From a virus (taxonomy: Duplodnaviria > Heunggongvirae > Uroviricota > Caudoviricetes), in IMG/VR virus record IMGVR_UViG_2734482548_000013: a stretch of 39,818 bases of DNA; one strand, written 5' to 3'. This document shows, piece after piece, positions 11,759-26,594 of this stretch (the stretch's first letter is position 1; every line of letters begins with the position of its first letter). A program made the position numbers and the translations under genes. Below the pieces are notes generated by a model. The model was given only the letters and a program-made list of their open reading frames with translations, searched no databases and was not told the DNA's origin.

Positions 11759-11914
11759 ACGTTACTAGATCAAAGAGCATTAGTTCATATGTAAATTGAC
11801 ATTTTTCTGGCACAGGGGAGAGCTAGCGTGGTTGTCCGCTTTGTGCCAATAGCGGACATTGCTGGCTCATGGTATGTTAGTTTAAGGAGGCAGGTTATGC
11901 CCTGTATTTCGCTG

Positions 11915-11923
11915 TGGTATAAT
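11915..11923 (+). promoter_or_regulatory. Extended -10 element TGgTATAAT, candidate promoter for the low-GC cassette
   Basis: Exact TATAAT with upstream TG seen in sequence about 34 nt before the GTG start and 18 nt before the AAGGGAG SD. Confidence 0.4.
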
Positions 11924-11956
11924 AGTTGCGCAATTGATACAAGGGAGCGTTACATC

Positions 11957-12919
11957 GTGAAAATTGTTTTCGAGGTTAATGGAAAGAAAGTTCCACTAAA
12001 ATCTTTAAAATACATAAGCAAAAAAGATCAACTCGAAGTAATGAAAAACTGGTTCTTTGAAAACTTTGAAGATCCGGCAAATGCTTGTCCGTATGAAAGT
12101 AGAGAAGGTGGCTATGCTTACATATATGGCGGGCCGTATGATGCGAGCGAAGAACTACAATCCATCTTCGGTCAATATGTTAAATCTGAGTATATTGAGG
12201 AATTAGTAGATGAATTACAAACACAATGTTTTGACTGGTCTGGAAACTCAAATAATATAGATGATTGGTACGATGATGATATCTACGACGCTGTAACGTC
12301 TTCCGGTAATCCGTATTTAAAATTCATTGATAATATCGATAAAATAAAAAAACTTGCAAAAGATAAAACTGAACAACAGCAAAAAAACCACTTGCTTAGT
12401 TTGCTCTACACGAATGTTATTACAGCTTTGGAAACGCTTTATGTTGAGCTATTCATTAATTCTATAGAGAAAGATGATGTCTACATAGCCAATTGTATAG
12501 AAAAAGGTAAGACTGAATTTAAAGTAAGCAAAGATATTGCTGCGTTGCCTTTCAAGGGTGAACCCATCGAGAAAATTAGGGGAGAGCTAATCAGGTCAAT
12601 CAAGGAACACTTGATCAGTGCAAGCTGGCATAGCACTAAAAAGGTAATCGACCGCTATGAAGCTACATTCGATATAAAAGTACAAAAAGACTGTCCGATA
12701 GAAGCTATTGAATTGGCAACCCTCAATCGAAATCACTTAGTGCATCGTGGTGGAAAGGATAAAGAAGGGAACCTCGTAGTGATTACAGACCAGGATCTTG
12801 AAACGCTGATTGAAAATGCATCGAACCTGGCAATTATGCTCTACAACAGTTTAAATGTAGCAACGAATAAAACCACCATTTTGCAACCAGATGACAAACC
12901 GTTCATTCATGAATTTTAA
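11957..12919 (+). CDS. Unknown protein A of the low-GC two-gene cassette (about 320 aa); family not recognised; possible HEPN-like R-x4-H (NRNHLVHRGG)
   Basis: Long ORF in strongly AT-rich DNA (14 of 60 G+C on the line starting 12301); GTG start at 11957 after an AAGGGAG SD; alternative ATG at 11897 after AAGGAGG; the track start 11828 is probably an upstream read-through. Confidence 0.6.
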   Translation: MKIVFEVNGKKVPLKSLKYISKKDQLEVMKNWFFENFEDPANACPYESREGGYAYIYGGPYDASEELQSIFGQYVKSEYIEELVDELQTQCFDWSGNSNNIDDWYDDDIYDAVTSSGNPYLKFIDNIDKIKKLAKDKTEQQQKNHLLSLLYTNVITALETLYVELFINSIEKDDVYIANCIEKGKTEFKVSKDIAALPFKGEPIEKIRGELIRSIKEHLISASWHSTKKVIDRYEATFDIKVQKDCPIEAIELATLNRNHLVHRGGKDKEGNLVVITDQDLETLIENASNLAIMLYNSLNVATNKTTILQPDDKPFIHEF

Positions 12920-12934
12920 TAGCGCAGGTCATAC

Positions 12935-13936
12935 ATGGATATTCGCACACGAAAGACAAAATTTTTAGAGTCGTTAGATTCAACTGAAGTGATACGCAAA
13001 GCAGTAAGTCTCGCTATAGATTGCATTATTGATAATCATAATAGTAATGAAGATACCCCCTTAGTTATTACCAGCTATGATGATCTCTGTAGAATCCAGG
13101 TGCTAAATTATGTACAGGAGTTTTGCGAAGCTGCATTCCCTGATATGGATGAATATTACTTTAGTCCTAACATACTTCGCATCAACGGCAAGACTAGTGA
13201 AGAAGCTTGTATTAACTTAATTAAACTCTTAAGAAGTACAAAAGGCATGCTATTCTGGTCCGATGCCCCATCGTGGTTCGCTAGCCTCCCCGACGGATTA
13301 TTCCATGTTGTTAACATTGATCAAAAAATCGTTACTCGCGGCCTTAATAAGAAAAACTCTAAGCCGACAATAATCAATAAAGATTACAGTGTAGATACAC
13401 TACTATCAGAGCTATTTTTGAATGGCGCACACATGGAGCAACCCAACGTACACAACGTTTCTGAGGGAAACATGAAGTTCTATGATGAATGCCATGCTGG
13501 ATTAATCAGACCAATACCCGCTCCAATAGGCGCGTCATACGATGAAGAGATCACAATTAATTCTCCAGATTGGCAAAAGCTCGCGTGTGTAGCTTTACGC
13601 CGCTATCAGTCGAAGGAATGTCATGACGGAATGCAATGGGATACAACCGATCATGGTTGGACTGATGTAATCGCGTATCCATTCGTCGAAGAAATACAAT
13701 CAATGGATAATAGTGGTTATCGACAATGTTTAGTTGGGCTGGTCACAATAAACAATTCAAATGCAAATTCTCCGTACCTATCTACCGTTTGGATACATCC
13801 ATTTTATCGCAGGAGAGGGTTATTAAGTAAGTTATGGCCAAAATTACAAGAGTTATATGGAAGTAACTTCGAAATTGAGCGACCTAATGAAAATATGAAA
13901 GCATTTCTGAAAAGTGCGAAACACGCAGATTACTAA
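12935..13936 (+). CDS. Unknown protein B of the low-GC cassette (333 aa) with a C-terminal GNAT-like acyltransferase motif
   Basis: ATG 15 nt after the gene A stop (operon); C-terminal segment CLVGLVTINNS...VWIHPFYRRRGLLSKLWPKLQEL resembles GNAT motif A; AT-rich (18 of 60 G+C on the line starting 13021). Confidence 0.65.
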   Translation: MDIRTRKTKFLESLDSTEVIRKAVSLAIDCIIDNHNSNEDTPLVITSYDDLCRIQVLNYVQEFCEAAFPDMDEYYFSPNILRINGKTSEEACINLIKLLRSTKGMLFWSDAPSWFASLPDGLFHVVNIDQKIVTRGLNKKNSKPTIINKDYSVDTLLSELFLNGAHMEQPNVHNVSEGNMKFYDECHAGLIRPIPAPIGASYDEEITINSPDWQKLACVALRRYQSKECHDGMQWDTTDHGWTDVIAYPFVEEIQSMDNSGYRQCLVGLVTINNSNANSPYLSTVWIHPFYRRRGLLSKLWPKLQELYGSNFEIERPNENMKAFLKSAKHADY

Positions 13937-14556: not shown

Positions 14557-14895
14557 CTATTTTTTGGTGCTATAGACTTTTTCGCCCGAAAAGTCTGGAG
14601 CGACCCAAAAGTTAATATTAAACTGAGCATCATCGCTTAGTTCAACACGGTGCCAGTATTGTGGTGGGCTTGTTGCAAAAGCGCCAGCATTAATGACTAC
14701 TTTTATCTCCGGTTCAGTAGCATTCTCATCAGTAAAACCATAATATGTTACAGTGCCTTCCATTACGCACAACTGCCCAAAAACACCTGCTGCTGTATTA
14801 TGATGTGTTAATAACGCTGAAGGTACGTTCTCTTTTGTGAAGAACGGAGTTGAGCGTTTGATTACCCAATCTTTAGGAATTCTCTTGTGTGTCAT
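14557..14895 (-). CDS. YeaR-like DUF1971 protein
   Basis: Start at MTHKRIPKDWVIKRSTPFFTKENVP with GGAGGAGG SD; resemblance to E. coli YeaR (RSTPFW..., FNIDFFV motifs) recalled from memory; opposite strand to the flanking phage genes. Confidence 0.6.
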   Translation of the reverse strand: MTHKRIPKDWVIKRSTPFFTKENVPSALLTHHNTAAGVFGQLCVMEGTVTYYGFTDENATEPEIKVVINAGAFATSPPQYWHRVELSDDAQFNINFWVAPDFSGEKVYSTKK

Positions 14896-15708
14896 AACCA
14901 CCTCCTCCAAAACATGCATTAAAAATGCATCTTTTGGAGGGTTATGTCAAGCTGTTATGAAACACATAATTGATATGTTGATTAGAGGAGAAGATAGAAT
15001 AAATATGGTTGTTTTTCGTATAACTATTTGTTTTACTTTTAGTTTATGCATTCTGTGTGTTAGGAATAAGTTATTAAAGTTTAATCAAAAAATCTCGATG
15101 TAGTCCACATAGATTACTGTTACTGAACCTTATTGTGTGTATTAGTTGTGTTCTGAAATTTCAGCTTAATTATTTATGATGTATTTTTTAACGATAAATA
15201 TTTTCCCAGGATACCTTTACTGTGTATATAAATAAATTATATACGCATAAATAATGTAAAGGCGTCCTTTTAGATATATCTTATCAAATGTTAATGACTT
15301 GAGTGGGAAATATGATTCCAGCAACTTATCATGTGGCTACTTTATAAAAATAATGCCCATATAAAACAACAAGCGAAAAGGATTACGGATAAAAAAGGAG
15401 CGAGATGTGCGAACTTGTTATTTTCCATGTTTAACCACCTTAAATAATTGATGATGACGGGATGATTGCATCTGTAATGCTTTTATTGAAATGTTATGAT
15501 AAAAAAGAACTTTTGCATAACATTAAAATGTAATTTATCTAATCGTTTTTAATAATAAGTGTCGTATTTCTATCCTTGTACCAGCTATTTGATATGTAGT
15601 GTTTGTTCATGCTATGTGGGGCTTTACACCATAGCCAGTTTATTTATACTTTATTCGTCAGCCTGAACAACTGGCATCTGCTGCGCTGCGCCATCGAGAG
15701 ATTGAGAA

Positions 15709-18181: not shown

Positions 18182-18610
18182 ATGGGTTTTCGTAGCGCAT
18201 CAATTCTTACGTTGATTATTAGTGGGATTATTATCGGGTGCACTGATGCTGTATCGACAAATTATCATGACCGTACATCATATTACTCCGATAAAGCAAT
18301 AGAGACACAGTATGTGAGTTCATCTGAACGTACTTCTGATGTTAGTGAGGATATCCGTCTGTATGCCCATCAAATCAAGAGCGCCATCGAAAAACAGTTC
18401 GGGGATGCGAGTAAGTATTCAGGAAAAGAGTGTACACTGAGAATGCATATGGCCCCGAATGGCCTTCTACTGGAGGTTAAAAGAGAAAGTGGAGACCTCG
18501 ATTTATGTCGTGAAGCGATGAATGCGATAAAGAATGCTGATATACCTGCCCCCCCTTCGCCGGAAGTATATAAAGTATTTCAAAATGGGGTGCTGGATTT
18601 TAAACCCTGA
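18182..18610 (+). CDS. Lipoprotein with a TolA domain III-like C-terminus
   Basis: Signal peptide plus lipobox IIGC; C-terminal segment YAHQIKSAIEKQFGDASKYSGKECTLRMHMAPNGLLLEVKRESGDLDLCREAMNAIKNADIPAPPSPEVYKVFQNGVLDFKP aligns closely with the TolA C-terminus (...CTLRIKLAPDGMLLDIKPEGGDPALC...AVYEVFKNAPLDFKP) as remembered. Confidence 0.75.
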   Translation: MGFRSASILTLIISGIIIGCTDAVSTNYHDRTSYYSDKAIETQYVSSSERTSDVSEDIRLYAHQIKSAIEKQFGDASKYSGKECTLRMHMAPNGLLLEVKRESGDLDLCREAMNAIKNADIPAPPSPEVYKVFQNGVLDFKP

Positions 18611-18760: not shown

Positions 18761-19156
18761 GTGGGATTAAAGAAAATCGTTATGTTGACTTTTTGGGTCG
18801 GTTTTGTTGCGGGATGCACACCTTTACACCCTTCAGATTGCCACAAAACTACTGCTACAGGTAGTTGCAGTTCAGGACGCTGGGATGATCAGGATGAATG
18901 GGGGGCGCAAGCGCGGGGAATCAGAGCTGCAATTAATGCCAAACTTGATGAGCCGCATAACTGGAAAGGGAAAAAATGCAGGTTGCATATGGAATTCTCT
19001 CAGGATGGCACGGCGTTAAAAATATCTACCAGTAACGGTGATAAAGCCTATTGCGAAGCGATAAAGTCCGCAGCTCATAAAGCCAAATTTCCGGCCTTCA
19101 ACAATCCGGAAGTCTACAGAGATTTTCAGAAATCTGGCTTTGACATGCGAGGTTAG
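18761..19156 (+). CDS. Second, more divergent TolA domain III-like lipoprotein (paralog)
   Basis: GTG start after GAGGAG SD; lipobox VAGC; C-terminus KKCRLHMEFSQDGTALKISTSNGDKAYCEAIKSAAHKAKFPAFNNPEVYRDFQKSGFDMRG shares the two-Cys and PEVY pattern with the upstream gene. Confidence 0.6.
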   Translation: MGLKKIVMLTFWVGFVAGCTPLHPSDCHKTTATGSCSSGRWDDQDEWGAQARGIRAAINAKLDEPHNWKGKKCRLHMEFSQDGTALKISTSNGDKAYCEAIKSAAHKAKFPAFNNPEVYRDFQKSGFDMRG

Positions 19157-19623: not shown

Positions 19624-20120
19624 TGCCTCCATCATTACGAAAAGTCGTTGCTGCTGCTATTGGTGGCGGAGCAATTGCTATAGCATCAGTGTTAATCACT
19701 GGCCCAAGTGGTAACGATGGTCTGGAAGGTGTCAGCTACATACCATACAAAGATATTGTTGGTGTATGGACTGTATGTCACGGGCATACAGGAAAAGACA
19801 TCATGCTCGGTAAAACGTATACCAAAGCAGAATGCAAAACACTCTTGAATAAAGACCTTGCCACTGTCGCCAGACAAATTAACCCGTACATCAAAGTCGA
19901 TATACCGGAAACAACGCGCGGCGCTCTTTACTCATTCGTTTACAACGTGGGTGCTGGCAATTTCAGAACATCGACGCTTCTTCGCAAAATAAACCAGGGC
20001 GATATCAAAGGCGCATGTGATCAGCTACGTCGCTGGACATATGCTGGCGGTAAGCAATGGAAAGGTCTCATGACTCGTCGTGAGATTGAGCGTGAAATCT
20101 GTTTGTGGGGTCAGCAATGA
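19623..20120 (+). CDS. SAR endolysin (phage 21 R-like lysozyme)
   Basis: N-terminal Gly/Ala-rich signal-anchor-release segment [18 protein letters not shown] followed by a lysozyme domain; starts at the holin stop. Confidence 0.9.
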
Positions 20121-20581
20121 ACAGAGTAACCGCGATTATCTCCGCTCTGGTTATCTGCATCATCGTCTGCCTGTCATGGGCTGTTAATCATTACCGTGAT
20201 AACGCCATTACCTACAAAGCCCAGCGCGACAAAAATGCCAGAGAACTGAAGCTGGCGAACGCGGCAATTACTGACATGCAGATGCGTCAGCGTGATGTTG
20301 CTGCGCTCGATGCAAAATACACGAAGGAGTTAGCTGATGCGAAAGCTGAAAATGATGCTCTGCGTGATGATGTTGCCGCTGGTCGTCGTCGGTTGCACAT
20401 CAAAGCAGTCTGTCAGTCAGTGCGTGAAGCCACCACCGCCTCCGGCGTGGATAATGCAGCCTCCCCCCGACTGGCAGACACCGCTGAACGGGATTATTTC
20501 ACCCTCCGGGAACGACTGGTAATGATGCAGGCCCAACTTGAAGGTGCTCAGCAATACATAACCGAGCAGTGTTTAAAGTAA
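20117..20581 (+). CDS. Rz i-spanin
   Basis: N-terminal transmembrane segment then coiled-coil periplasmic domain; start overlaps the endolysin stop. Confidence 0.8.
20337..20522 (+). CDS. Rz1 o-spanin lipoprotein, embedded in the +1 frame of Rz
   Basis: Lipobox VVGC and proline-rich tract [15 protein letters not shown]; entirely nested within Rz. Confidence 0.75.
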
Positions 20582-22176: not shown

Positions 22177-22313
22177 TATATGGCTGATTTATAATTGTGA
22201 GTTTAATATTATGTTGACTCACTCATTGATCCAATACCTAACTTTACCAGCAACACCTCCGCCCCCAGTAGCACTGGCTGCTGGGGTGCGTTTTATTCAT
22301 AAAGCAAGGCTGT

Positions 22314-23102
22314 ATGAGCGAGAAATTAAAGATAGTCTATCGCCCATTACAAGAATTGTCACCGTATGCGCACAACGCCAGGACGCACAGTACTGAGCAG
22401 GTGGCACAACTGGTAGAAAGTATTAAGCAATTCGGCTGGACTAATCCGGTGCTGATTGACGAAAAGGGCGAAATTATTGCGGGTCACGGTCGTGTTATGG
22501 CGGCTGAAATGCTCAAAATGGATTCTGTTCCGGTCATTGTTCTGTCTGGCCTGACGGATGAGCAGAAAAAGGCGTACCGCCTGGCAGATAATCGCCTGCC
22601 GATGAATGCTGGCTGGGATGAAGATCTGTTGCGGATGGAGCTGTCGGACCTAATCAATGCTGATTTTGATGTCTCCCTGACAGGCTTCATCCCGGCAGAA
22701 ATTGATGAACTGTTGACGGATGTTTTGCCCGGTACAGGAAATGAGGAGGAGCCGTATACGACGAAAATTGATACGCCTGTTTATGAGCCGTCAGGCGGTA
22801 AACCGGATATCAGTGAACTGTACGACGATACGAAAACTCAGGAGCTGATCAGCCGGATACGTTCGGCGTCCCTTGATCCTGATATTGAGAAATTCCTCCT
22901 GTGTGCAGCAGAACGTCACACGGTGTTTAATTTCAGCAGAATTGCGGACTATTACGCTCATGCCCCCGCTGAAATTCAGTGCCTTTTCGAGGAGTCGGCG
23001 CTGGTGATCATTGATTATCAGCAGGCTATTGAAAATGGATTTGTCCGAATGACGCAGCGCATGGTGGAGATCATGCATGGCGGGGAGGAGGAATATGCGT
23101 GA
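22314..23102 (+). CDS. ParB-like nuclease-domain protein (the short K-12 ynaK appears to correspond to its N-terminal part)
   Basis: ParB/Srx-type motif EIIAGHGRVMAA in the N-terminal domain; acidic C-terminal half. Confidence 0.75.
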   Translation: MSEKLKIVYRPLQELSPYAHNARTHSTEQVAQLVESIKQFGWTNPVLIDEKGEIIAGHGRVMAAEMLKMDSVPVIVLSGLTDEQKKAYRLADNRLPMNAGWDEDLLRMELSDLINADFDVSLTGFIPAEIDELLTDVLPGTGNEEEPYTTKIDTPVYEPSGGKPDISELYDDTKTQELISRIRSASLDPDIEKFLLCAAERHTVFNFSRIADYYAHAPAEIQCLFEESALVIIDYQQAIENGFVRMTQRMVEIMHGGEEEYA

Positions 23103-24027
23103 TGATTTTTGCGCCTTTATTCTGACTCACGGGCGACCGGACAAAGTTCTGACTTACCGGACGTTGCGTCGTGCTGGCTATACCGGGAAAATTTTTATCG
23201 TTGTTGATGATGAAGATAAGACACGGCATCAGTACATGGCTGAATTTGGTGAACAGGTGCTGGTATTTTCCAAAGCCGATATTGCTAGTCGTTTTGACGA
23301 AGCCGATAATTTTAGTGACCGCCGCTCAATTTTTTACGCCCGTAATGCCTGTTTCGACCAGGCAAAACTGGTCGGGTGTAAATACTTCATTCAGCTCGAT
23401 GATGATTATCACGAGTTCCAGTTTCGGGTGGATCGCAACTATGACCAGGCCTATTTCCCGATAAGGAAACTGGATGAGATCCTTTCTGAAATGCTTGCGT
23501 ACTACGAATCAATACCTGCTCTTTCCATCGCTATGTCGCAGGGCGGGGATTTTCTTGGTGACAATGGCGGCCATGCTTCGTGGGTGAAACGCAAGGCAAT
23601 GAACAGCTTTATCTGTTCGGTTGATCGACCGTTCTCATTCATGGGGCGCATTAACGAGGATGTGAATACGTACACGAATCTCGGTCGCTGTGGTGAATTG
23701 TTTATGACGATCGGTGCTGTCCAGTTAGGGCAGAAACAGACGCAGAAAAACAGCGGCGGAATGACCGAGCTGTATCTGGATTCCGGAACCTACGTTAAAA
23801 GTTTTTACTCCGTCATGTATGCGCCGTCGTGCGTAAAAATCTCACTTATGGGTGCCAGTCATAAACGCATTCACCATCAGGTCACCTGGAACAACGCTGC
23901 AGTAAAAATCCTTCACGAAAAATACAGGAAGAAGACACCCTGCATATCAATGGGGGTGACAAATGATTCCGTATTCGAAAGTCGAGTCTCTGGCAGCGTG
24001 CCGGATGACTGCACAACAAATCGCTGA
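23095..24027 (+). CDS. Putative GT-A-fold glycosyltransferase-like protein (DxD motif), substrate unknown
   Basis: Start overlaps the ParB-like stop after a GGAGGAGG SD; N-terminal ILTHGRPDKV...FIVVDDED Rossmann-like start and FIQLDDDYHEF DxD-type motif; assignment from motifs only. Confidence 0.45.
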   Translation: MRDDFCAFILTHGRPDKVLTYRTLRRAGYTGKIFIVVDDEDKTRHQYMAEFGEQVLVFSKADIASRFDEADNFSDRRSIFYARNACFDQAKLVGCKYFIQLDDDYHEFQFRVDRNYDQAYFPIRKLDEILSEMLAYYESIPALSIAMSQGGDFLGDNGGHASWVKRKAMNSFICSVDRPFSFMGRINEDVNTYTNLGRCGELFMTIGAVQLGQKQTQKNSGGMTELYLDSGTYVKSFYSVMYAPSCVKISLMGASHKRIHHQVTWNNAAVKILHEKYRKKTPCISMGVTNDSVFESRVSGSVPDDCTTNR

Positions 24028-24214
24028 CGTTCTGGATGTTGATCTGAACCGACTGAAAGAAAATCGGGAAGCAATGACAGATTTTTATGCGGCCATCCGT
24101 AAGGGCAGAGCGAAAGGTGAAGCCGAGTTACGAGCGGCATTGTTTAAGCTTGCCAGAAAAGGGGATGCCTTTGCTCTGCGCGAACTACTCAGGGTGGATA
24201 AAAATCAGGACTAA
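23963..24214 (+). CDS. Small helix-rich protein, possible DNA-binding protein of the packaging module
   Basis: 83-aa ORF overlapping the 3' end of the upstream gene; start uncertain (internal Met at 24005 possible). Confidence 0.35.
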   Translation: MIPYSKVESLAACRMTAQQIADVLDVDLNRLKENREAMTDFYAAIRKGRAKGEAELRAALFKLARKGDAFALRELLRVDKNQD

Positions 24215-24217
24215 CTG

Positions 24218-25312
24218 ATGAGCAGACCGGACTGGGGGGCGTTGCAGCAGGAGTATATTGCTGAATACACCCGCTCCGGTATATCTCCGGTGGCATGGTG
24301 TGAAGCAAGGGGACTGAATTACGCAACAGCCCGTCGTTACATCAAAAAAACTCCGAAAAATGCGCAGACAGAAATGTGCAAAACTGCGCAAAAAAGTGCG
24401 CAGAAAAAATCTGCGCAGACTGCACAAAAGCGGAACGAAAAATCTCAGGAAAAAAAGCCAGTATTCGATGCGGGCCTGAATGAGGGCGACGCGGAGGAAT
24501 TTTCGTTCTGTCCCGATGAATTCGGCATTTCTGACCAGCAGGCTAAGTTTGCGATGCTTGTTGCTCAGGGTAAAAAGCCGACAGAGGCGTACCGACTAGC
24601 CGGTTATGAGGGGCAAGGTGCGACAGCTAACAGCAACGCCAGTCGTATGCTTAGAAATGCCAGGGTTTTTCGCGCTATCAGCTACTTCCGCAATCAGTAC
24701 CAGAAACGCTATACCGCAGACCTGGATTTACTAGTGAGTCAGTTGATGGCTATTGTCCTGGCCGACCCCAATCAGCTTGCACAATTTCGCCGTGTTAACT
24801 GCCGTTATTGCTGGGGCGAGAATCATCTCTACCAGTGGCGCGATATAGCAGAATTCGACAAGGCAGCGGCGCAGGCTTCCAGAGATGGCAAACCCGAACC
24901 GGAATATGGAGGCCTCGGCTTTGTTGATAACGCCATACCCAATCCGGACTGCCCGAAGTGCTGCGGTGAGGGAACGGGACAGCTTTATATGGCTGATACC
25001 ACTCTGCTTGATGGGGATGCGCGGCAATTATATGCAGGGGCAAAATTCGGAAAATTCGGCGTTGAGATCCTGCTGGAGGATAAGGCTGCCGCCCGGCGTG
25101 AATTGTTGCGTTTGTTTTCTGCTGGCGGGGCTTTATGTGCAGATAAGCGGCTACGGGAACTGGAAATTGAACGGCGCAGAATGGAAAACCAGAAGCTGCG
25201 CAAAGAGATCGAAACGGTGGAAGATAATGAACATCCCCAGCCTGTGGCGATCAATATTAATGTGGTTGATGCCAGAGTAAGGAGTGATGAAGATGATCTC
25301 TCCGACGCTTAA
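24218..25312 (+). CDS. Terminase small subunit (large variant with N-terminal HTH and C-terminal Cys4 zinc-ribbon-like segment)
   Basis: N-terminal HTH GISPVAWCEARGLNYATARRYI; terminase-small-subunit-like block FAMLVAQGKKPTEAYRLAGYEG...ANSNASRMLRNARVFRAI; CRYCWGE...CPKCCGEG; directly upstream of the large terminase. Confidence 0.7.
   Translation: MSRPDWGALQQEYIAEYTRSGISPVAWCEARGLNYATARRYIKKTPKNAQTEMCKTAQKSAQKKSAQTAQKRNEKSQEKKPVFDAGLNEGDAEEFSFCPDEFGISDQQAKFAMLVAQGKKPTEAYRLAGYEGQGATANSNASRMLRNARVFRAISYFRNQYQKRYTADLDLLVSQLMAIVLADPNQLAQFRRVNCRYCWGENHLYQWRDIAEFDKAAAQASRDGKPEPEYGGLGFVDNAIPNPDCPKCCGEGTGQLYMADTTLLDGDARQLYAGAKFGKFGVEILLEDKAAARRELLRLFSAGGALCADKRLRELEIERRRMENQKLRKEIETVEDNEHPQPVAININVVDARVRSDEDDLSDA
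24361..24426. repeat. Six palindromic hexamer repeats (five TGCGCA-type, one TGCACA) inside the terS coding sequence; candidate pac or TerS-binding site
   Basis: Seen directly: TGCGCA at 24361, 24385, 24397, 24412; TGTGCA at 24375; TGCACA at 24421; they generate the KTAQKSAQKKSAQTAQK protein repeat. Confidence 0.5.
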
Positions 25313-26594
25313 TGTGCCTCAGGCGCGATTTCTTTCAATGCCCCATAAATTTAAAGCCTATATTGCTGGTTTTGGCTCGGGCAAAACATGGGTTGGGTGT
25401 GGCGGCATATGCAAGGGGATTTGGGAGCATCCAGGTATAAATCAGGGATATTTTGCGCCAACGTATCCCCAAATTCGCGATATTTTTTACCCTACAGTGG
25501 AAGAAGTTGCTGCTGACTGGGGATTGAACGTAAAAATTAATGAGGGAAATAAAGAGGTTCACTTTTATTACGGACGCCAGTATCGGGGAACCACTATCTG
25601 CAGATCGATGGAGAAGCCACAAACGATCGTCGGTTTCAAAATTGGTAATGCGTTGGTGGATGAACTGGACATTTTGCCGAAGGAAAAAGCCAGAACGGCG
25701 TGGCGCAAGATAATTGCACGTATGCGTTATAAGATTGATGGACTTCGCAACGGTATTGACGTTACAACCACGCCGGAAGGATTCAAATTTGTCTACGAGC
25801 AGTTTGTTAAAGCCGTGCGTGAAAAAACAGAGCTGGCCTCACTGTATGGTCTGGTGCAGGCATCTACTTTCGATAATGAAAAGAACCTGCCAGCAGATTA
25901 CATTCCTTCGCTTCTTGAATCATACCCTCCAGAGCTGATTAAAGCCTATCTTCGAGGACAGTTTACTAACCTGACAAGTGGTACTGTTTACCATCAGTTT
26001 GACCGGAAACTGAATAATTGCGAAGAAGTGGAGCAGCCAGGGGAGCCGATTTATATTGGGATGGATTTTAACGTTGGAAAGATGGCGGGAATCGTCCATG
26101 TGCTGCGTTTGGGGCTTCCATGTGCGGTAACTGAAATCATCAATGCCTACGATACGCCGGATATGATCCGCATCATTAAAGAACGCTTCTGGCTGTATGA
26201 TGGGAATGATTACCGGAAAGTGAGGGAAATTTATATTTATCCAGATGCTTCCGGGGATTCCAGAAAATCAAGTAACGCAAGTACGACGGATATAGCCCAG
26301 CTTAAGCAGGCTGGTTTTAACGTTGTGGTGAACAGCTCGAACCCGCCAGTAAAAGATCGCGTTAACTCAATGAATGCAATGTTCTGCAATGCCAATGGTG
26401 AGCGTCGCTATAAAGTTAATGTGAAGCGTTGCCCGTTATATGCCGAATCTCTGGAGCAACAGGTCTGGGATGAGAAGGGGGAGCCTGATAAAAAATCTGG
26501 CAATGATCACCCGAATGATGCCGGAGGTTATTTCATCGTTAAGCAATTCCCTATTGTCAAACCGACCGGAAGAGTCACATCACTTCGGATTTAA
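25293..26594 (+). CDS. Terminase large subunit
   Basis: Walker A GFGSGKT near the N-terminus; C-terminal nuclease-like acidic residues; start chosen at the ATG 8 nt after AAGGAG. Confidence 0.85.
   Translation: MISPTLNVPQARFLSMPHKFKAYIAGFGSGKTWVGCGGICKGIWEHPGINQGYFAPTYPQIRDIFYPTVEEVAADWGLNVKINEGNKEVHFYYGRQYRGTTICRSMEKPQTIVGFKIGNALVDELDILPKEKARTAWRKIIARMRYKIDGLRNGIDVTTTPEGFKFVYEQFVKAVREKTELASLYGLVQASTFDNEKNLPADYIPSLLESYPPELIKAYLRGQFTNLTSGTVYHQFDRKLNNCEEVEQPGEPIYIGMDFNVGKMAGIVHVLRLGLPCAVTEIINAYDTPDMIRIIKERFWLYDGNDYRKVREIYIYPDASGDSRKSSNASTTDIAQLKQAGFNVVVNSSNPPVKDRVNSMNAMFCNANGERRYKVNVKRCPLYAESLEQQVWDEKGEPDKKSGNDHPNDAGGYFIVKQFPIVKPTGRVTSLRI

Follow-up and report, generated by a model that had tools for sequence, protein, structure and literature searches.

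What does a phage glycosyltransferase act on when no enzyme that would prepare a base for it is recognised in the same genome? To our knowledge, every known case of DNA glycosylation starts from a hydroxymethylated pyrimidine, and the question is posed by two overlapping genes in IMG/VR virus record IMGVR_UViG_2734482548_000013, a 39,818-nucleotide (nt) stretch of Caudoviricetes DNA (the window). Open reading frame (ORF) A, at 22314..23102 on the + strand, encodes a full-length 'YnaK' of 262 amino acids (aa) with a ParB/Srx N-terminal domain followed by an unnamed C-terminal partner domain. ORF B, at 23095..24027 on the + strand, encodes a soluble 310-aa protein of the TAGT (TET-associated glycosyltransferase) family with a predicted GT-A fold. 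Both are real genes, with thousands of homologues for each. A comparison of their relatives reveals that the conserved partner of the TAGT enzyme is the C-terminal domain of ORF A, not its ParB domain, and that this C-terminal domain is an obligatory partner of the transferase. The explanation that we favour, with about even confidence, is a partner-dependent DNA glycosyltransferase that acts on the phage's own DNA.

The transferase and its obligatory partner

The pairing of the two genes, which the original prediction placed ahead of the terminase, is real and conserved across phyla. A survey that scanned one genome per species yielded 49 loci with ORF B relatives (39-99% identical) in Proteobacteria, Bacteroidota, Firmicutes, Desulfobacterota, Saccharibacteria, Kiritimatiellia and others. 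Among deposited phages, such relatives are found in Lactobacillus phage phi jlb1, Vibrio phage pv27, halovirus HHTV-2, Nocardia phage NTR1 and L. delbrueckii phages. The TAGT gene is directly preceded by a partner-domain ORF in 52 of the 52 loci that have upstream DNA, and the loci with the pair span many bacterial phyla as well as phi jlb1, pv27 and HHTV-2. ParB-N, in contrast, is also carried by the upstream gene in 41 of these 52 loci, and at least six partners are genuine stand-alone proteins of ~133 aa. A profile search retrieves at least 3069 partner-domain proteins. The top scorers consist of the partner domain by itself, at 130-140 aa, and carry no Pfam annotation; this solitary form is found in many phages.

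The junction between the genes follows a restricted pattern. The stop codon of the partner and the start codon of the TAGT gene overlap by 8 nt in 16 of 51 loci and by 11 nt in 25, which gives one or the other in 41 of the 51. In the window the TGA of ORF A lies at 23100-23102 and the ATG of ORF B at 23095, an overlap of exactly 8 nt, as the original prediction had described along with a GHGR motif, which is found at residues 57-60 of ORF A. A strong Shine-Dalgarno sequence for ORF B, GGAGGAGG, occupies 23084..23091 (+), inside the 3' end of ORF A and three bases before the ATG; the stop codon of ORF B is at 24025-24027. Of the translational coupling that had been proposed, the overlap and the strong ribosome-binding site stand as observed, and the coupling itself is what they suggest.

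The partner domain (~residues 142-261 of ORF A; 22737..23096, +) is acidic and ~115 aa in length, and neither a Pfam family nor a structural match was found for it. AlphaFold2 models a confident four-helix core at residues 167-230, while two segments are of low confidence though highly conserved. The first is the peptide YTxKIxxPxYEPxGxxP (Y148-P164; 22755..22805, +), with two invariant tyrosines, Y148 and Y157, and a nearly invariant P155; this peptide could serve in docking or accept the sugar. The second is the SALVIID strand (S228-D234; 22995-23015, +). Median isoelectric points (pI) across the family are 4.61 for ParB-N, 4.48 for the partner C-domain and 8.74 for the transferase, so that the charges of partner (pI ~4.5, as for ORF A at 4.5) and transferase (~8.7) are complementary and count in favour of a partnership. 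The constant pairing, the gene overlaps, the conserved segments of low confidence and the opposite charges together suggest a heteromeric enzyme made in fixed proportion.

The evidence on ORF B itself is extensive. It matches Pfam PF20691, the TAGT family, with E=3.7e-34 (118.9 bits, cut-off 27.5), residues 8-222 aligning with profile positions 4-205 of 205, and it matches PHROG 842 with E=7.5e-104. The DxD motif D102-D103-D104 (23398..23406, +), within LDDDY at residues 101-105, is invariant in 48 diverse homologues. Conservation reaches 95% or more at 56 positions across the same 48 homologues, which represent many phyla; among these positions are D102-D104, R14, R83 and N187-E188-D189, and the acceptor-side half is conserved as well as the donor-side half. 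ORF B fits the R...DDD...ED signature of phage 5-hydroxymethylcytosine (5hmC or hmC) glycosyltransferases and the base-J glucosyltransferase (JGT) (bioRxiv 10.1101/2023.12.21.572611), with EDV rather than EDY/F as its third element. The AlphaFold2 model is confident for residues 1-150, and its top PDB matches by Foldseek are GT-A enzymes: SpsA (E=7e-5, the best), ColGalT1, K4CP (chondroitin polymerase) and glycogenin, with WrtF and GtrB also among the matches. A sequence search of the PDB returned no solved TAGT relative. Membership of the TAGT family, the LDDDY motif and the Foldseek matches bear out the original reading of the 310-aa protein as a GT-A glycosyltransferase with a DxD motif. 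Judged by its sequence, ORF B is the catalytic subunit, a basic GT-A TAGT enzyme with intact catalytic motifs. The glycosyltransferase family and its naming are already known; RefSeq and UniRef call the protein "GREB1-related protein" or hypothetical. The protein ends in an extension of ~22 residues, specific to Escherichia, whose coding sequence runs into the next ORF.

The ParB/Srx N-terminal domain (~residues 1-135; 22314..22718, +) is more variable in its presence. ORF A matches Pfam ParB_N PF02195 just over threshold (E=8.7e-7; 29.3 bits, cut-off 26.3) and phrog_620 with E=1.7e-90, and its GHGR aligns with the GERR box of Spo0J (1vz0). Residues N21, R23, G57, R60, D92, N93, W101 and D102 are kept in the family. 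The conservation of the first six, assessed across 39 members, indicates that the nucleotide pocket of the domain is apparently preserved. The same type of N-domain is fused to phage DNA methyltransferases (phrog_498, E=6e-51, residues 3-141). In the IbrB (ParB-like)/IbrA pair, which is encoded before terminase genes, a ParB/Srx module appears likewise to be coupled to a nucleic-acid-modifying enzyme. Compared with both systems, the effector here differs in being a glycosyltransferase on a separate polypeptide, linked through a partner domain that is able to exist without ParB-N.

Phage records label ORF A homologues 'chromosome (plasmid) partitioning protein', which is probably an over-annotation. 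Spo0J/ParB partition proteins have an N-domain that can be aligned with that of ORF A, but ORF A is acidic and has no helix-turn-helix, dimerisation domain, ParA or parS. A partition function was rejected on the absence of ParA, parS and helix-turn-helix, the acidity of the protein, and a constant neighbour that is a glycosyltransferase. The name given by RefSeq is 'ynaK'. In strain EC2 (L001 20115-20903, equivalent to window 22314-23102) the RefSeq/PGAP ynaK is an 86-aa pseudogene 'missing C-terminus'; the EC2 sequence is identical to the window and holds the intact 262-aa ORF, so that the annotation omits the 523 nt that code for the partner domain, probably because the truncated K-12 YnaK served as reference. 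The original prediction regarded ynaK and ydaY as remnants of this region in the Rac prophage of K-12. The label fits ynaK; ydaY lies ~11 kb downstream in the tail module of an intact relative, and would adjoin ynaK in K-12 only through a deletion.

The acceptor of the sugar

In the explanation we favour, ORF A and ORF B would form a two-subunit, late-expressed phage glycosyltransferase that places sugar onto the phage's own DNA around replication and packaging. The two genes would be translationally coupled and give products in matched amounts, and the partner segments YTxKIxxPxYEPxG and SALVIID would dock on the badly modelled acceptor half of the transferase. The ParB/Srx N-domain would add a nucleoside triphosphate-dependent regulatory or targeting step in small temperate phages, and large lytic phages would manage without this domain. 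The sugar would then shield packaged DNA from host nucleases.

The conservation of ORF B is the starting point for asking what its acceptor might be. The E. coli prophage protein is 40-59% identical to homologues from Firmicutes, Bacteroidota and archaeal viruses. In most loci the pair is immediately followed by the genes for the terminase small subunit (TerS), terminase large subunit (TerL) and portal, and the terminase families differ among them: Sf6-like TerS with T7-like TerL, lambda gpA-like, and PBSX-like. The module is therefore linked to a position, not to one packaging machine. Together, the identity and the differing terminases weigh against a lineage-specific surface glycan or structural protein as the acceptor, and the strong conservation among hosts whose envelopes and virion proteins are unrelated points to a universal one. 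Just two candidates are of equal universality, DNA or nucleotides on the one hand and the partner protein on the other.

The same evidence bears on a role at the cell envelope, in which the acceptor would be a small molecule or an envelope precursor (a nucleotide, a signalling molecule, or a teichoic-acid or lipopolysaccharide intermediate) and the purpose counter-defence or seroconversion. Prophage GT-A enzymes such as TarP do modify wall polymers, the Foldseek matches of ORF B include SpsA, WrtF and GtrB, related phage GT-A enzymes have TarP as their best match in the PDB, and ~65% of phage glycosyltransferase contigs have no neighbouring base-modification enzyme (both bioRxiv 10.1101/2023.12.21.572611). 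However, ORF B has no membrane segments and no gtrA/gtrB-type neighbours, the 40-59% identity is kept across Gram-negative, Gram-positive and archaeal hosts whose envelopes are unrelated, and the ParB/Srx fusion and the replication/packaging context would go unexplained, which makes such an acceptor very unlikely. The maximum Kyte-Doolittle value over 19 residues is 1.25 for ORF B and 1.08 for ORF A, with 0 windows above 1.6 in either, against 72 such windows in TrkG, the positive control. O-antigen conversion of the gtrABC type, which uses membrane transferases and a flippase, was rejected outright, as there are no hydrophobic segments and the neighbours are trkG and terminase genes. The original prediction had likewise noted no obvious membrane segments in ORF B and had held that it could be something other than an O-antigen converter; the hydropathy values and the lack of gtr-type neighbours agree with it on both counts.

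Several lines of context point to DNA. Characterised TAGT members glycosylate hydroxymethylated phage DNA bases, namely the T2/T6 beta-glucosyl-HMC-alpha-glucosyltransferase and the TET-linked phage GT-A enzymes (PMC13216743; bioRxiv 10.1101/2023.12.21.572611). ParB-like and terminase neighbours of phage GT-A genes have been seen in a metagenomic survey (bioRxiv 10.1101/2023.12.21.572611). In apparently lytic genomes a stand-alone partner and TAGT lie beside DNA polymerase A, a Toprim-DnaB primase-helicase, an SNF2 helicase, or primase/helicase genes, and in several loci C5 and N6/N4 DNA methyltransferases share the same pre-terminase island as the pair. Membership of the TAGT family, a ParB/Srx fusion type shared with DNA methyltransferases, and placement before the terminase or with replication genes together favour a DNA-centred role. 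The pair follows the lysis genes and a terminator-like hairpin in the window and constitutes the first genes of the late operon in phi jlb1, which makes late expression alongside packaging likely.

The relatives also suggest that the sugar is elaborated further, in the manner of known DNA hypermodification clusters. Some loci have TAGT paralogues in tandem, some TAGT proteins are fused to S-adenosylmethionine (SAM)-methyltransferases or sulfotransferases, and one cluster includes CofD-family and nucleotidyltransferase genes; these three arrangements are the basis of that suggestion. Five database proteins (P0290, P0248, P0252, P0266 and P0268) join TAGT to a carbohydrate-type sulfotransferase (PF03567), class-I SAM methyltransferases, or a second TAGT, which would imply sulfated, methylated or disaccharide products. 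Fused ParB-TAGT proteins were considered and rejected, since the long TAGT homologues carry methyltransferase, sulfotransferase or second TAGT domains instead. On a 123-kb gut-phage contig (L055 10001-14631), genes for a CofD-family protein, an IspD/NTP_transf_3 nucleotidyltransferase and two TAGT proteins lie downstream of a stand-alone partner, with serine hydroxymethyltransferase (SHMT) and a weak Thy1 (ThyX) match 8-10 kb upstream of the module; this may be a larger hypermodification cluster with an unusual activated donor. At L037 2857-4897, the ParB-TAGT pair is separated from a C5-cytosine methyltransferase by two conserved proteins (324 and 330 aa) that match no Pfam family; these two are candidates for an unrecognised base-preparing step.

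A comparison with the closest named enzyme defines both the likeness and its limits. The T6 ggt product, like ORF B, is a soluble phage enzyme with a GT-A fold and a DxD motif that matches PF20691 (E=1e-8), and PHROG 842 bears the T2/T6 ggt name. It differs in that its direct hhalign comparison with the ORF B subfamily gives E=0.47 and that T-even phages are absent from tblastn at E<=1e-5. T6 ggt lies between dCMP hydroxymethylase and uvsX with no partner-domain gene, and needs alpha-glucosyl-hmC supplied by gp42 and alpha-GT. The Rac-like prophage has no homologue of gp42 or alpha-gt, and because these genes that supply the T6 acceptor are absent, the PHROG-derived T6 product name is probably an over-annotation. 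A literal T6-type second-glucose transferase was rejected for want of an hmC pathway and of direct similarity to T6 ggt. The TET/5mYOX-associated phage GT-A enzymes (Burke et al.; bioRxiv 10.1101/2023.12.21.572611) and the kinetoplastid base-J glucosyltransferase share the GT-A clan and R...DDD...ED with ORF B, and the TET/5mYOX-associated systems have secondary glycosyltransferases and sugar-tailoring enzymes, as do the TAGT relatives here. Those systems, in contrast, use 5hmC or 5-hydroxymethyluracil (5hmU) from an adjacent C5-methyltransferase with TET or from a thymidylate-synthase homologue, none of which is recognised here, and it is the unnamed acidic partner domain that constantly adjoins the transferase here.

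The known acceptors raise another explanation, prophage defence or superinfection exclusion, in which the enzyme would glycosylate the hydroxymethylated or glucosylated DNA of incoming T-even-like phages and not its own. As known acceptors of the family, hmC and glucosyl-hmC are encountered by the cell only in invading phages (PMC13216743); the possibility has been raised for prophage glycosyltransferases (bioRxiv 10.1101/2023.12.21.572611), and the module adjoins the trkG moron. Against this, the pair holds a late-gene position, with the lysis cassette and hairpin on one side and the terminase on the other, and the same module occurs in apparently lytic phages beside their own DNA polymerase. 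It is also carried by phages of Lactobacillus, Bacteroides and Haloarcula, which would be unlikely to share a setting of encounters with hmC phages. We consider defence highly improbable.

A third rival turns on the partner itself. Here the enzyme would be a protein glycosyltransferase whose acceptor is the partner, for example Y148 and Y157 of YTxKIxxPxYEPxG in a glycogenin-like self-glucosylation, or another conserved protein. The partner is the only protein equally conserved and constantly linked, disorder is predicted for the segment that holds its invariant tyrosines, the Foldseek matches of ORF B include glycogenins, and the problem of the missing acceptor disappears. The relative GREB1 O-GlcNAcylates a protein (PMC7968844). 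A docking peptide, however, would equally have invariant aromatics, an enzyme with so basic a pI is well matched to a polyanionic substrate, DNA is the target in three of the four characterised branches of the clan, and the ParB/Srx fusion, the replication/packaging placement and the neighbouring DNA methyltransferases point to DNA as well. A protein acceptor is unlikely on this evidence. GREB1 belongs to the same glycosyltransferase clan as ORF B (PMC7968844) but is a 1949-aa multidomain cytoplasmic animal O-GlcNAc transferase that acts on the oestrogen receptor, and the name it shares with ORF B reflects homology alone.

A number of observations weigh against the partner-dependent DNA glycosyltransferase that we favour. 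DNA modification is a conclusion that we infer solely from family membership and genomic context, and the ORF A/ORF B heterodimer is inferred as well. No TET/JBP, thymidylate-synthase-like hydroxymethylase or DNA methyltransferase is recognised in the window, nor in the complete 38-kb genome of phi jlb1, so the sole known TAGT acceptors are absent. Of the DNA modification module originally proposed, the enzyme's membership of a family known to glycosylate DNA is borne out, and the modification itself is putative. We know of no precedent for glycosylation of canonical bases. Similarity to T6 ggt is detectable through the Pfam model alone, direct profile comparison being non-significant. The acceptor half of ORF B is badly modelled (predicted local distance difference test, pLDDT, <50 over much of residues 154-263), which leaves the binding groove unreadable. 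ORF A has no recognisable helix-turn-helix and, being acidic as well, is unlikely to bind DNA itself. Finally, the eukaryotic relative GREB1 glycosylates protein, not DNA (PMC7968844).

The original idea of the ParB-like protein as a DNA-binding partner loses ground, as both of its domains are strongly acidic and the invariant partner is the unnamed C-terminal domain. The basic transferase appears, by its charge, to be a better candidate than acidic ORF A for contact with DNA. Among the Pfam-scanned neighbours of relatives, no enzyme that makes a hydroxymethyl-pyrimidine was seen, save for the SHMT and weak Thy1 match of the gut-phage contig. With no recognisable route to 5hmC or 5hmU, the acceptor of the favoured enzyme must be a feature of ordinary DNA or something as yet unrecognised. 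More specifically, the heterodimer may place sugar on ordinary DNA that lacks hydroxymethylation, whether at a canonical base, on the backbone or at terminase-made ends; this claim is a tentative one, with a real but minor chance of being correct.

The prophage around the pair

The window holds a Rac-like prophage with recET, racC, kilR, sieB, ydaT/U/V, a lysis cassette and trkG, followed by the ORF A/ORF B pair and then by terminase, portal, head and tail genes. Of 5426 complete E. coli genomes, 1607 have the 2-kb region of the pair and 867 of these have 80% or more of it; ten deposited phage records contain it too. A scan of IMG/VR adds little diversity, the matches being mostly near-identical E. 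coli prophages. The terminator-like hairpin (22263..22286, +), placed between the stop codon of trkG (22176) and the ORF A start, has a 10 bp stem with 7 G-C pairs and is followed by TGCGTTTTAT; it matches the terminator consensus and probably insulates the module from the trkG moron.

Downstream, a small ORF of 83 aa begins at 23963 (23963..24214, +; RefSeq gives 69 aa from 24005) and resembles part of the terminase small subunit, phrog_309. It overlaps the 3' end of ORF B by 23-65 nt, depending on the start, and matches just the middle of phrog_309 (positions 145-218), with the 364-aa TerS coming next; it may represent a split TerS or an accessory DNA-binding protein. The genomic context is completed by the genes for TerS (24218..25312, +) and TerL (25284..26594, +).

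Other genes of the prophage merit a brief description. Two adjacent hypothetical genes of the early region, at 11828-12919 and 12935-13936 (+), encode 363 and 333 aa with weak Pfam matches to HEPN/RES N-terminal domain 1 (E=2e-4) and GNAT acetyltransferase (E=9e-4). The pair could be a defence or toxin-type moron, and its second gene (333 aa) is frameshifted in strain EC2. A DUF1971 gene at 14557-14919 (-) lies on the opposite strand amid an otherwise rightward early/late region and is probably another moron. Two genes with TolA C-terminal domains, at 18182-18610 and 18761-19156 (+; E=2e-23 and 1e-14), are directly 5' of the lysis cassette, and their products may be decoys against TolA-dependent phages or colicins. 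An Rz-like spanin gene at 20105-20581 (+) contains a nested lipoprotein ORF in the +1 frame at 20337-20522, the classical Rz/Rz1 layout.

Implications for solitary phage glycosyltransferases

Hundreds to thousands of "solitary" TAGT/GT-A phage genes have been described in genomes that have no hydroxymethylation pathway, some with ParB or terminase neighbours, and their function has been left open (PMC13216743; bioRxiv 10.1101/2023.12.21.572611). Literature searches on ynaK, on ParB with TAGT and on HHTV-2 returned nothing on function. The partner domain, the overlapping gene layout and the split between ParB-fused pre-terminase pairs and stand-alone partners in replication modules appear to be undescribed in the accessible literature, a body that does not extend to Iyer et al. 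2013, where TAGT was reportedly first defined.

The locus offers a tractable case, an inducible Rac-like prophage that almost one in three complete E. coli genomes carries, and defines a minimal unit: the transferase together with an invariant acidic partner, partly mis-annotated as a pseudogene by RefSeq. If the acceptor proved to be the partner protein, the DNA role assumed for the family would need revision. If ordinary DNA is what the enzyme modifies, the pair would represent a new chemistry of epigenetic or anti-restriction marking and a possible source of sequencing and restriction artefacts. It would then also define a widespread, undescribed class of DNA modification through which temperate phages of bacteria and archaea would escape host nucleases, invisible to current annotation.

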